A DNA stretch of 64,000 nt, from NCBI RefSeq assembly GCF_963506605.1, contig NC_083279.1, positions 16,368,001-16,432,000 on the forward strand, written 5' to 3'. Source of the stretch: Zootoca vivipara (taxonomy: Eukaryota). A program made the translations under genes and the position numbers. Below the pieces are notes generated by a model. It was not told where the DNA came from and did not search any database. It was given only the letters and a program-made list of their open reading frames with translations. How positions within the stretch are numbered: position 1 is the stretch's first letter; every line of letters starts with the position of its first letter. Below, piece by piece: positions 8,241 to 62,005 of this stretch.

Positions 8241-8605
8241 AAACTTATTACCAAACTTAAAACCATGGAGAGACCTGGTCTGAATAGAGACATTGGATTC
8301 TTATCTCATTACACATGATAAAGCTATTTTTAGCCATCTCACCTCTTGCTTTTTCCTGTAAGACCAATTGCAGTCATTAACAGTCGTCAACAGGTTTACC
8401 ACACCTATCAGCCAATCACCCATTCCCACCACCCTTCTGAATAATACCCCTCCCCACCCTCTCACTATATACACTATATATAAGGTTCTGGTGACTTCTG
8501 GTTCAGTATATCTGAAGAAGTGTGCATGCACACGAAAGCTCATACCTATGACAAACTTAGTTGGTCTCTAAGCGGCTACTGGAAGGATTATTATTATTAT
8601 TATTT
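8241..8605 (+). mobile_element. Penelope-like retroelement 3' fragment (ORF C-terminus + pLTR with hammerhead motif)
   Basis: 8241-8318 translates to KLITKLKTMERPGLNRDIGFLSHYT*, a GLNRD..LSHY ending that I recognise from reptile PLE ORFs. It is followed by CCAAT/TATA-like motifs and CTGAAGA-A-GTGTGCATGCACAC-GAAA-GCTC-ATACC (8512-8546). Confidence 0.8.
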
Positions 8606-22758: not shown

Positions 22759-22972
22759 AAAACAATTCCTTCCAGTAGCACCTTAGAGACCAACTTAGTC
22801 TGTCATTGGTATGAGCTTTTGTTTGCATGCACACTTTGAAGGTATCTGAAGAAGTGTGCATGCCCATGAAAGCTCATACCAATGACAAACTTAGTTGGTC
22901 TCTAAGGTGCTACTGGAAGGAATTGTTTTCTTTTGTTTCGACTACGGCAGACCAACACGGCGACCTACCTGT
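22759..22972. mobile_element. Penelope-like pLTR fragments as an inverted (head-to-head) pair; hammerhead motif at 22841-22880 (+)
   Basis: 22759-22836 is the near-perfect reverse complement of 22852-22929; the + copy continues into a PLE-type tail (ggcagaccaacacggcgacctacctg). Confidence 0.85.
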
Positions 22973-23661
22973 AATTTAATACCACAGTCATTTACTAGGG
23001 AATAAGCTGTACTGAGCTAAATGGGACTTAGTTCTGGGCAGATGTGTACAGGATTGTGCTGCAAGATCCCATGGAGTTCAATTTCTCCTTTGCTTCTCCC
23101 AGTGTGCCCACTCTGCTCTCCCCATAGGAGCTATGGAGGGTCAGGGAAAACTGAAGAGCAGGTTTAGGCTGCTGTGCACACGCACTGTGTGAGAGAAGGG
23201 AGTGGTAGTTCTGTTGCACAGCCAAAATTCACTAGTGGAAGCAGTTCATTGGATTCTGCATTCATTCAGTCTCACTGAACTCAATAGGATGTGTATAGGT
23301 GTCTACTATCAAGCTGCCTTTGACATTTGACATATGGAGTGCTGGGATTCATGTCCCAATGTCCCTCTTAGCTTGATACTAAGCATTGGGTCTATCTGAG
23401 TTTTGAAGCATTTTGTTTATATACCAAAGTGGAAAACTTGGAGCATTGGTGTTCCACTTCTGACACACCATGGGCAGGGTCATTGCGGTTGTCTCGGAAC
23501 TGGATTTTAATCTGAGGAATCAGTGATGAATGCTGGACAAAATTATGGCTTGTGGGCTGAGTCTGACCATTATTTTTCTCCTGCCATAATACGCTATTAT
23601 GCACCAACAGCACACTGCTATGTGCAGCATCAATGTGTTGTAATAGGTAGAGTTGCCTAAG

Positions 23662-40236: not shown

Positions 40237-41615
40237 AAAGCTATTTGAAAACATATTTGCGGGCTTAGGTTTTTCCTTTCTTTATTAGTTCCCTTTATTC
40301 TTCTAGTGCCACTAGCACAGCCTCTACTTCTAGCATGATCCGTCAGAAAGTCAAACCTGACTCTGTGAGTCTGATGCACCAGAGCTGAGCGAATGCAGAC
40401 GCCATCTTTTTCTGAACTCCAGAACTTCGTTAGCAAGTAATGCACTGCTTGACTGAGCAAACCTCCAGCTGATTTCAATGACACTTTTGTTTGATTAAAG
40501 ACTTCAGATTTCATCTCTGAGGAGGAGGGATGAATGGAGAACTCCTTCAAAGGGAAGATGTGCTTCGGTGCCAGAGGCCAGCTGGGTATGTTTATAGAGA
40601 GGGAAGGAGGTTGTAGAACGTTGGTTGCCTAGAGCGGGGGAAGAATTCAGGGGAAGGGAAGCCCAGAGGGTCTCTCAAGTGGCAGGTTTCTGTTTGGCTC
40701 CACCTGGAAATGCTCCAATATTAGCCAACAATTCATCTTCCCCAGCTAATTGCATTTAGATGGTGTTGAGAATCATGTTTTCCTGCTTCAACCTGCAGTG
40801 GGTACAAAAATCCTATCTTGCATGTGCTATGCATATGCACATGTTAGTAGAATGCATTTAGAAAGGGAGAATAGGCTCTCTCAGTTTAAGCAGTGGTAAA
40901 CTAACGAGCATGACGAGTGACACTGGCCACATTCACACAGCATGGCAAAACCATAGTTAATAGTTTACCATTTAAGTGGCAATCTTGGCCATTTTGTTCC
41001 CAGGTTGACAAGCTCCACCTGCCCCTCCCTTCCCTGTCTACAGCATGTGCGGGAACTGCCTTCTTGACCCACTATTGGTCTCATCTGCTCAATCTGCTGG
41101 AGTCTTTCTTCACATGCAGGAGAAGTCCCTGACTCACCAAGGGCTTGAGAGCCGTCAGCTACCCTCACCTGTTTTAGCTGGCCAGTCAAAGCTATTCCCG
41201 GGGTATGGCCACTGTTACATCGCATATGATGAGCGGGCCGCTTATAAATCTCTTGTCAATAGCAGATGGTGGTGTGAGGTGGAGGCACTTGTCTGACCTG
41301 GCAGGTGAGTCACTGCTCCTTACCAGGAGGGGGAGAGGAGAGGCGACAGGGAGGCATGGTGCAAAAGCACCCGCAGAGTGCTTCCTTATCCAGGTAAGCA
41401 GCAGTGACCCACCTGCCAGGAGGTCATGTCTCTGCTCCAACTCATGATTTGCTACTGTCTTCTGTGTAGATCAGGAAGAGACTCACTTGATTTAAGAAAT
41501 CAGCCACGTGTGCCTAGTCTATGAAGATTTGCTACTGGTGGTCATACAAACCGACACCCATGCTCATTTTGGCAGTAAGCTTTGCTGTAAATGTGACTTT
41601 CTGAGAATTCCACTA

Positions 41616-41935
41616 CAGTGGAACCTCGGTTTATGAATTTTCGGATTACGGACGCCGCGGACCCATCTGGAACGGATTAATTCACTTTCCATTACTTTCA
41701 ATGGGAAAGTTTGCTTCAGTTTATGGACGCTTCAGTTTATCAACAGACTTCCGGAACCAATTACACCCATGCTTCGGGTTAAGTACGCTTCGGGTTGAGT
41801 ACTCCGTGGACCCGTCTAGAACAGATTAATCCACTTTCCATTATTTCAATGGGAAAGTTTGCTTCAGTTTATGAACGCTTCAGTTTATGAACAGACTTCT
41901 GGAACCAATTGTGTTCATAAACCGAAGTACCACTG
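41616..41935. mobile_element. Tc1/mariner MITE with internal duplication
   Basis: TA|CAGTGGAACCTCGGTTTATGAA...TTCATAAACCGAAGTACCACTG|TA; about 41655-41762 is repeated at about 41804-41910. Confidence 0.88.
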
Positions 41936-42466
41936 TACTATTGCTTTTGCTGTTGCCATGAAATGTGCTTCCATGAGGGACAAATGAGCCCAGAATTCCT
42001 CCTTTTGCCCTGCACCTGTGCACCCCTGTTTCTACCTTATCCTCCTCCATAAACCCAACATTGAATAACTAATTCATGCGCTTTATATTTCTAAGCACAT
42101 ACACATAGTCTTTATAAAATAACTACTTTTTTAATGTCAAGGATTTTAAATGGTACATTGCTTGGAAAATGCATAGGCTACAAGGTCGTGAACCTGCGCT
42201 AAGGAGAAAAGAAAGACTGTGACTGAAATAGAAATGTGTCTTGCAGACAGGAGAGGGATATTATCGTGGCTGTTTTCCAAATGTGAGTCACTGAGGCAAG
42301 AAGGGATTAGGCCACAACGTATTTCTGTTATTTCTGTACAGGTGTCTTTTGACATTCTGCAACATGTTGCATTTGCATCTCATCCATCTGGGATGAGACG
42401 TGCTGCATTGAGAGACAAGCTCAGGATTTAGACGTTGAGCTGAAGAGTACTTTCCCTTCCCTTTTA

Positions 42467-42791
42467 TAAAGGTAAAGGGACCCCTGACCGTTAGCTCCAG
42501 TTGCAGACAACTCTGGGGTTGTCATGCTTTATTGACCAAGGGGGCTGGCGTACAGCTCCGGGTCATGTGACCAGCATGACTAATCTGCTTCTGCAAACCA
42601 CAGCAGTGCACGGAAACGCCATTTACCTTCCCGCCTATTTATCTACCTGCACTTTGACATGCTTTTGAACTGCTAAATAAAAAAATTCCTTCAGTAGCAC
42701 CTTAAAGACCAACTAAGTTTATATTTTGGTATGAGCTTTCGTGTGCATGCACACTTCTTCAGATACCCAATTTTGAACTGCTAGTTAGCAG
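42467..42791 (-). mobile_element. Partial Sauria SINE interrupted by a hammerhead-containing insert
   Basis: taaaggtaaagggacccctgacc is the reverse complement of the Sauria tail; the body is homologous to 6581-6937. Confidence 0.85.
42676..42770 (-). mobile_element. Minimal Penelope-derived insertion consisting largely of a hammerhead ribozyme (42728-42767)
   Basis: Reverse complement GGTAT-CTGAAGA-A-GTGTGCATGCACAC-GAAA-GC-TC-ATACC; 13-bp TSD TTTTGAACTGCTA (42663-42675 and 42771-42783). Confidence 0.85.
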
Positions 42792-44032
42792 TACCTTGAC
42801 AGAGAAGACTGAAAACTGGTCACTTGGTTGCAGTCTTCCCCACTAGGGCAAGACGTACTGCATTGTAATTTGAATCATTGTTTCTAAAGGTACACCTTTC
42901 AATCAAATTAGCATATGCAAATCCATACCCTCTCTTGTGTCCTTTTTGTGTCCTTTTTTTATCCAGTTAACAGCACTGTTCACTAAGAGGGGAAAAGGTA
43001 GGCAAGTGAGGCTAATACACCTCCTTTTGGTGCTCACTGGTTTAGAGAGGGCAAGTCAACAGGCAGCAACAGCAAGGAAAAGTCCAGGGTCTATGGTGGT
43101 CAGCAATGGGGCAAGGCAGGAGCCTGATGAAGCCAAAACCTGACACTAGCCAAGTAAAAAGATCAGCCACGCATGGGGAGTGGAGCAAAAAGGGAGATGA
43201 GGATCAATTTGGCAGTGCCAGAATGAAATGCAGTGTTATAAACTGGAAATGTTATATTTGGGACCAGGGGCTGATCTTCCCTTATCATGCTGAATGGATG
43301 CTTCATTTAAATGCTTTGTAAACCTCACTGTATTTACTTGGAAGAAAAGCTCTATTCATTCCTACATGCATGCCCTTCACAGACTCTGTCCGCACTTGAT
43401 TGCTGTATATGTGTCCTGGGTTCACCTGCAACCCAAACCCAAGATTCACCAAGATGAGTGGACTTTTAAATAGGTGGATCTCTGGTTGAGCCAGCTAAGA
43501 CTGGGTTCAGTCAGGGCTATGCTATGCAGGCTGAAGGCCTTCATTCCAGCTCATGCCAGCATAAGTCCTCTGACTCATCTTAGGCTGGAATAAGTCCCCC
43601 ACAAAGATATGAGGCAGGAGGAGACCTACCCCATTCCAAACTTCATTCAGCTTGGTCACATGACCTAGTAGCCCAGCAGGAGTTACAGTGGTAAAAAGGG
43701 TGGTTTTATTTTAAGGGCTTATTTCCCCTCTGCTAGGCTCAGGCCAACTTAGTTAGCAGTAGCTCCACTCCTGAAACGAGTTTGGAATCGGGGATAGCTA
43801 CACCACCATAATCCACCCCAGTATAAGTTACACTGGCTTCCTATCATTTGGATCCGCCCAGGGGCTCCTTGGATGATTTCAGAATTCTGCTTAACCACTT
43901 CCTGCCACTGGCAATGCCTGGCTGCCCATAGGCCCACCAGATGTAGTTGACTGGGTGTCTCGTTTGCACACTGATTTCCAGGTTTTATGTTGTATATGGA
44001 ATGTGCTGCTCTATATGACAGACATTGAACTT

Positions 44033-61493: not shown

Positions 61494-61897
61494 CAGGAAT
61501 GCCGGGGAAATCACTGAAATGCCTGGGAAAATCTGGAAGCATGGCAGCCCATCTCGGAGGTGTAGATTTGGGTGAATTTCCTTAAAAATAGCTCAAAAAC
61601 TCATTTTTTTTAACTTTTTGCAAATAAAGCTCAACAACTAAAAACCCACATTTGTGTCTGGATTTTAACTTTTCGAAATATTTCAACCCTACTGGAGGGC
61701 CACATTTGGTCCACTGGGCATGAGGATTCTCACCCTTGGTGTAAGAGAAGGCCAGTGAGAAAGTTTTCGACACACTGAGGTGATGCTATCACAACCTGCC
61801 TTGGGTGTTTGATATTGGGAAGAGTTAAGTAAGTGAGGTCAGGAAGGCCAAGGAAATACCGTGTGGGTGGGTCTGAATTTCACACACAGCTGTTAAA

Positions 61898-62005
61898 TTC
61901 TGTTTCAGTGTATCTGAAGAAGTGTGTATGCACATGAAAGCTCATACCTATGACAAACTTAGTTGGTTTCTAAGGTGCTACTGGAATGATTTTTGTTTTT
62001 GTTTT
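61898..62005 (+). mobile_element. Penelope-like pLTR fragment with hammerhead motif (61910-61947)
   Basis: GTAT-CTGAAGA-A-GTGTGTATGCACAT-GAAA-GC-TC-ATAC followed by ctatgacaaacttagttggtttctaaggtgctactggaa. Confidence 0.8.

Follow-up and report, generated by a model that had tools for sequence, protein, structure and literature searches.

The window, i.e., the whole stretch of 64,000 nucleotides from Zootoca vivipara that was analyzed, contains a 95-bp insert in a SINE copy, and a hammerhead motif is present on the minus strand of the insert. The features of the locus and three older copies of the same family elsewhere in the window are as follows.

42462..42791, plus strand: host SINE copy, interrupted near its shortened 3' end (BLAST)
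42663..42675, plus strand: target-site duplication, left copy
42676..42766, minus strand: element-derived stub of 91 nt; it begins at the putative RNA start S (42766) and ends at the first of the two pLTR 3' end sites, the tail-less one
42728..42766, minus strand: minimal type I hammerhead (sequence, descriptor scan, and features from part of PMC4209133)
42767..42770, minus strand: four junction bases absent from the parent; the G at 42767 is a candidate cap copy
42771..42783, plus strand: target-site duplication, right copy
about 8251..8600, plus strand: older, longer family copy with ORF end, TATA box, hammerhead, and tail-less end (bounds approximate)
about 22760..22975, plus strand: older pair of inverted family copies; the forward arm begins at S, is preceded by a G, and is tailed (bounds approximate)
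about 61890..61995, plus strand: older short family copy extending beyond S by a few bases on the upstream side (bounds approximate)

The initial annotation had described a perfect 13-bp direct repeat on both sides of the insert. It was indeed found at 42663-42675 and 42771-42783, and the match could not be extended further. One base at the 3' junction can be assigned to the target or to the element, and thus the duplication is 12-13 bp long. Duplications in the family are mostly 8-15 bp long with a mode of 12-13 bp (34 solo arms, i.e., arms without an inverted partner in reach). The stretch 42676-42770 had been regarded as one mobile unit of 95 bp; an insert of this length is present, but only 91 nt (42676-42766) are derived from the element, and the last four bases (42767-42770) belong to the junction. 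The parent carries a T at the position equivalent to 42767.

BLAST revealed that the host is a high-copy repeat, which we take to be of the Sauria SINE / Squam1 type. There were 48 matches in the window and the fetched loci, mostly with 70-81% identity across about 230 nt, and the insert was absent from all displayed matches. As proposed, the insertion is later than the SINE, because the insert interrupts the SINE copy inside the duplication. The notion that the insert splits the SINE holds for the SINE context, but not for the position. The agreement with intact relatives ends about 8 nt past the right duplication, while the relatives continue for tens of bases, and therefore the insert was placed at the end of a previously shortened SINE copy. 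A 7-bp inverted repeat (42777-42792) lies at the point where the SINE match breaks off; it is made up of the right duplication together with the bases that follow.

The hammerhead motif and its parent element

From 42767 to 42728 the minus strand reads GGTAT, CTGAAGA, A, GTGTG(CATG)CACAC, GAAA, GC, TC, and ATACC, so that the layout given in the initial annotation (core, stem II, GAAA, AGCT, UC) is as described. The motif comprises a 4-bp stem I, CUGAAGA, an extra A, stem II (GUGUG/CACAC), GAAA, and the palindromic AGCU, and the predicted cut lies between 42733 and 42732, 34 nt below S. The core elements CUGANGA, GAAA, and UH are present together with helices I and II, in agreement with a PLE-type (Penelope-like element) minimal hammerhead. 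The extra A after A9 was also verified; it is a described trait of PLE hammerheads, and the base between 9 and 10.1, the G10.1-C11.1 pair, and the palindromic 15.2-16.2 from the feature list in PMC4209133 are all present. In contrast, the 5-bp stem I (GGTAT/ATACC) is not a feature of the element: stem I of the parent copies has 4 bp, and the fifth pair is not in the parent because the junction base supplies it.

A minimal-hammerhead descriptor had three matches in the window, all of this PLE family, and none in each of 20 shuffles. The proposed search with Rfam hammerhead models gave no hammerhead family at E<=10 (cmscan over 41500-44000), and the folding of the 95-mer was no better than that of shuffles (z 0.00). 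In the predicted dimer, pairing through the 14-nt palindrome of stem II is preferred to the stem III form. A 2017 paper reportedly dealt with the cleavage of PLE hammerheads as dimers. In the fetched loci, the descriptor scan revealed core variants with A, C, T, or G at position 7 and C, T, or A at position 17. Hammerheads tolerate changes at these two positions, and the variation is no test of selection because the descriptor fixes the other core positions.

Minimal hammerheads in the pLTRs of metazoan PLEs were described by Cervera and de la Pena 2014 (PMC4209133), and a turtle and snakes are named there among the reptiles that have them. According to the sections of this paper used here, PLE hammerheads are mostly single scattered motifs, "probably related to truncated PLEs", and close opposite-strand pairs also occur. 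Like the stub family, the metazoan PLE hammerheads have the same core, the base between 9 and 10.1, G10.1-C11.1, the palindromic 15.2-16.2, and a helix I of 4-5 bp. Helix II has 5 bp in the Zootoca family, in contrast to 7-8 bp in the Schistosoma families. The single motifs of Zootoca start at one particular base, which is preceded by a G and lies four bases before the core, whereas the same sections map no motif ends.

The family is large. A 36-mer from the 3' half of the unit occurs 16,992 times in the genome as an exact match, and a 42-mer that marks the subfamily 4,820 times (controls 0 in both cases). At least 40 copies of the unit have 99-100% identity (40 scored out of 290 candidates), and many copies continue upstream, through the pLTR into an ORF. 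The stub is identical to three long copies at 91/91 (L164), 90/91 (L170), and 89/91 (L140) positions; the proposed PLE derivation of the insert was thus borne out by the match of its 91 nt to the pLTR of long copies of a young PLE. Another copy, L062, has an unbroken ORF of 902 aa flanked by two pLTRs, and the hammerhead lies within the pLTR in L062, L140, and L232. The L062 protein has the Pfam domains RVT_1 (4.5e-12) and, downstream, GIY-YIG (5.9e-5), and the linker ahead of GIY-YIG, C-X4-C-X2-C, fits CX2-5CxxC, a mark of the Neptune clade that is also found in Nematis (PMC8557442, in part). Judged from its sequence, the parent is an endonuclease-positive PLE with an intact RT and GIY-YIG ORF in the genome, and the linker motif would make it Neptune-type. 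The family also has further traits of endonuclease-positive PLEs, i.e., an optional tail of 30-40 nt, inverted 5' copies, partial tandems, and target duplications.

According to the parts of PMC3846280 and PMC8557442 used, Neptune elements resemble the family in having a single ORF with RT followed by GIY-YIG, a CX2-5CxxC linker, a pLTR with TATA and Inr-like motifs, and an inverted 5' copy; the tail is often at one end, and the duplications are 8-10 bp long. In contrast to this anatomy, the one-tail rule is nearly strict in Zootoca (50/54 pairs, see below), and a pLTR is much longer than the stub.

5' ends of family copies and the additional G

S was defined as the G of GUAUCUGAAGA, four bases ahead of the hammerhead core C3. 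The sampling patterns were taken from the 3' half of the unit, and thus the inclusion of a copy was independent of its 5' end. The first 100 places for each of two patterns on contig C1 yielded the loci L031-L180, and 184 arms were kept after the removal of identical contexts, a sample drawn from the initial 4 and 19 Mb of a single contig. Among the 70 solo arms, about 10 of which are in fact short inverted or tandem arms, 28 begin in a 16-nt interval around S. Upstream of this interval, 7 arms begin within the adjacent 37 nt, 5 within the 210 nt that follow, and 24 still further up; 6 begin further down, and none of the 70 begins at the predicted cut. Starts around S were more frequent in the subfamily of the stub (19/30, versus 8/36).

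The base in front of S was analyzed genome-wide and compared with two further places at which the parent also carries a T. A base other than T was found 3,764 times before S, 1,184 times before S+2, and 653 times before S+4, while T was retained before S in 10,478 copies (with a pattern three bases shorter). In a hand tally of the first 100 matches listed for each place, a G was in front in 69 cases at S, 21 at S+2, and 12 at S+4, and the excess at S was highly significant in Fisher tests (9e-12 versus S+2 and 6e-17 versus S+4). The other 31 of the 100 junctions listed at S have no G, and some junction Gs can be attributed to the target or to the fold-back arm. Of 18 G loci that were read, 17 proved to be real junctions whose flanks differ, and the remaining locus is a long copy in which the base has changed; a subfamily with a native G was therefore rejected as the source of the excess. 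As 14 of the 30 loci read at S belong to older subfamilies, the G rule extends beyond a single burst. No 5' sequence is shared among the short copies beyond one G. In the long copies, a TATA motif begins 30-31 nt above S in 143/146 matches of three promoter types, with overlapping loci counted; TATA and Inr-like motifs have been noted in pLTRs (PMC3846280, in part).

The initial annotation had named continuously distributed 5' ends as the sign of ordinary 5' truncation. Instead, the ends peak at one base under the TATA box. Nevertheless, truncation after priming in the 3' pLTR could create a peak if the 5' edge of the hammerhead fold were a hotspot of pausing or repair. The folded RNA could pause the enzyme, some ends fall inside the hammerhead, and 82 of the 184 arms extend above S, with ends scattered over up to 2.9 kb. 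A hairpin is expected to halt the enzyme on entry from the 3' side, but the peak is at the far edge of the hairpin, opposite to the expected stop. We regard this reading as unlikely; it also leaves unexplained the S-specific G, the fixed distance to the TATA box, and the stops near the ORF start that are described below.

The RNA end at S might also be real but the result of processing, i.e., of a ribozyme cut, splicing, or a nuclease, and not of transcription initiation. A pyrimidine tract and an AG are present just above S in some subfamilies, and an intron of D. virilis has its end at helix I (PMC4209133, in part). However, the AG ends two bases above S, one promoter type lacks it although the tail haplotype of this type still yields starts at S that are led by a G (L207, L208), and no shared upstream exon was seen. 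A splice acceptor above S was rejected, because it does not fit the register and is not present in all promoter types. As for the ribozyme, 345 mismatches were counted directly ahead of the cut site and 160 two bases upstream, about a twofold difference (two young subfamilies only), but the predicted cut is 34 nt below S, 345 is far under the count at S, and about 10 of the 20 cut-site loci read are single-base changes within an intact ribozyme. Because the 345 mismatches include such changes, cut RNA leaves at most a small trace. The ribozyme cut was thus rejected as the 5' boundary, since no 5' ends pile up there. Altogether, we hold processing to be very improbable. The stub spans the predicted cut site, and thus its template would have been uncut RNA.

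About 6% of each of three RNA-seq runs was read. The unit is deeply covered in all three, by reads that do not tell the copies apart, and 76-88% of the mapped reads continue into unrelated flanks, so that host read-through dominates the RNA signal. In these portions of the runs, neither S nor the cut was listed with an accumulation of molecule starts or ends; loose ends in two runs and in the contigs of the third run pile up at S. We infer the RNA start, the copying of the cap, and ribozyme cleavage.

3' ends, tails, and copies at the ORF start

Two fixed 3' ends were found among the copies. They are either tail-less (about S+90, as the stub in the window) or tailed (about S+128), and the tailed end is located about 36-40 nt beyond the tail-less one, immediately before the ATG. 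Among the inverted pairs in L031-L180, exactly one arm is tailed in 50/54, 25 on each side (p 4e-11 versus one half). This fits the priming of both target strands at different sites. In addition, a hairpin is predicted from S+51 to S+110 (L232, L164), in which the stretch after the hammerhead pairs with the first half of the tail; it would put site 1 near the loop and is a candidate recognition structure.

The initial annotation had offered a discrete, retrozyme-like mini-element as one explanation, i.e., a self-propagating, non-autonomous ribozyme unit (retrozyme-like or SINE-like) mobilized by the PLE protein. In line with such a unit, short copies that are nearly identical number in the thousands, have a sharply defined 5' boundary, and are flanked by target duplications. 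The dependence of the short-copy share on the subfamily (19/30 versus 8/36) and the existence of true tandem arrays of the family elsewhere (L063, L278) also agree with it. The tail haplotypes argue against it: the four haplotypes are distributed 21/20, 3/11, 2/9, and 2/3 between arms that start at S and long arms, and all four are thus common to both classes. A haplotype private to short copies was looked for among them, and none was found. Furthermore, the junction bases vary between copies, and the unit has no TATA box.

Non-LTR retrozymes are similar to the stub in having a type I hammerhead, in being non-coding and PLE-related, and in having longer target duplications (PMC7229834; bioRxiv 10.64898/2026.07.22.740005; both in part). 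They are arranged in tandem, with a unit length of a few hundred bp, and circular RNA is made from them, in contrast to the single, promoterless 91 nt described here. Whereas retrozymes have at least two tandem units of about 150-450 bp (PMC7229834, in part), there is a single unit in one duplication at this locus, and the ends are not set by the ribozyme, as the stub spans the cut and no large peak occurs there. Taking these points together, the mini-element appears very unlikely, and this part of the initial annotation was abandoned.

In all, 274 copies span the tail into the ORF start. From the first 100 ORF-start matches listed, 70 loci were read, and 15 rows of tandem arrays were left out. 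Thirty-eight short non-tandem copies end at most 150 nt past the ORF start, and because they stop there they must have copied the front of the RNA. Only 1/38 extends above S-7, in contrast to 82/184 of the ordinary arms (p 8e-8), and the 37/38 that stop at or below it are the stops that truncation does not explain. Thirteen of the 38 begin around S and the remainder further down, and a G was in front in 4/4 copies with an exact start at S. One copy of this kind with an exact S start and a G in front, L280 (G000:C4:16330291), is located about 38 kb ahead of the window. Copies that continue in the ORF have the promoter side in 20/25 cases, most of which are of one near-identical type, and thus long copies mostly arise by another route. 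For these a second route is needed, i.e., a longer-than-unit or circular template, or a template jump. When the test was repeated without de-duplication, the short class was unchanged and the long class increased from 13 to 25.

A model for the formation of the stub

The insert is probably a promoterless PLE stub of 91 nt, the synthesis of which started at an internal tail site and ended when the enzyme ran off the capped 5' terminus of the RNA, with the ribozyme as a passenger. According to this model, Pol II would initiate at S, 30-31 nt under the TATA box, and the RNA would start with hammerhead stem I. The element protein would introduce two nicks into the target 12-13 bp apart, and priming would occur at site 1 (about S+90, tail-less, as for the window stub) or at site 2 (about S+128, tailed). 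With these front sites in use, the cap would be reached after 90-130 nt, and a C placed opposite the cap would become the extra G. Repair would then join the cDNA end, often with the addition of a few bases (three at the window insert). A stub without a TATA box would be sterile and not move further, and the passenger hammerhead would cut only together with a second copy or with protein. An RT that adds a C at any template end would yield an identical G. Many stubs, perhaps the present one among them, may derive from promoter-bearing partial copies instead of ORF-bearing RNA.

Several steps have counterparts in known systems. The minus-strand strong-stop DNA of LTR elements is likewise a short cDNA; its synthesis begins at an internal priming site and stops at the cap. 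An extra G is known from full-length L1 insertions. In contrast to LTR strong-stop DNA, the stub cDNA would be primed by the chromosome and kept as an insertion, and neither a tRNA primer nor an integrase would be involved. The extra G has been attributed to cap copying for L1 and for AMV RT (PMC4038843, in part). For PAc, an anole PLE of the Poseidon type from Anolis carolinensis, in vitro work demonstrated that priming occurs internally, at two sites on either side of the tail (Frangieh et al. 2024, PMC11167929, in part). PAc shares with the proposed route the two internal RT start sites around a tail of 30-40 nt and the cutting and extension of both target strands; the main PAc template is uncut RNA, and no reads end at the hammerhead cut. 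The PAc ribozyme cleaves only with protein. PAc belongs to another clade, its ORF starts inside the hammerhead, and its RT sites are 111-118 nt into the ORF, whereas both RT sites of the Zootoca family are before the ATG. Run-off at the RNA 5' end and an extra G are not discussed for PAc in the portion of the main text of PMC11167929 used, and a search by term in three text supplements gave no match.

Earlier publications already cover the minimal hammerhead with its additional base, the scattered occurrence of single motifs, the tails, the inverted copies, and priming at internal sites, and the locus in the window is one ordinary stub among thousands. A signature of cap-ended PLE stubs was not found in literature listings and abstracts. 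If the model is true, the thousands of scattered single hammerheads in animals would mostly be front-end copies of capped PLE RNA, and neither mini-elements nor ribozyme products. The genome would then reveal the RNA start of a PLE to the base, and uncut capped RNA would be a template in vivo. The population signal at S is a testable clue to the copying mechanism of PLEs, which are the closest mobile relatives of telomerase.

A wider version of the model, which we put forward only tentatively and with some doubt, is that PLE retrotransposition in general starts at the front of the RNA. It would begin with a chromosome-primed strong-stop cDNA from either of the two tail sites to the cap, and stubs would be events that ended there. 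Long and longer-than-unit copies would arise only by a jump of the cDNA to the 3' pLTR or via an RNA circle closed by the hammerheads, and the promoter would thereby be restored. Both target strands may prime on one RNA, at different sites.

Several tandem copies of the family were observed. The array L278 (G000:C3:91908500-91912300) has at least nine units of 293 bp, apparently within one 10-bp target duplication, and each unit contains the TATA box, S, hammerhead, tail, and a piece of the ORF start. L063 (G000:C1:2775500-2781500) consists of four 598-bp tandem units in which the ORF start is joined to the ORF end, pLTR, hammerhead, and tail, and a 263-bp pair, L219/L220, resembles it. Both arrays fit the retrozyme class better than the window stub; L278 is a far better retrozyme candidate and hints at a circular template. 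Lastly, ORF starts are repeated at a distance of 3,030 bp at G000:C1:78419590/78422620, C2:27479970/27483000, and C2:103031182/103034212, and these are longer-than-unit copies of a young subfamily.
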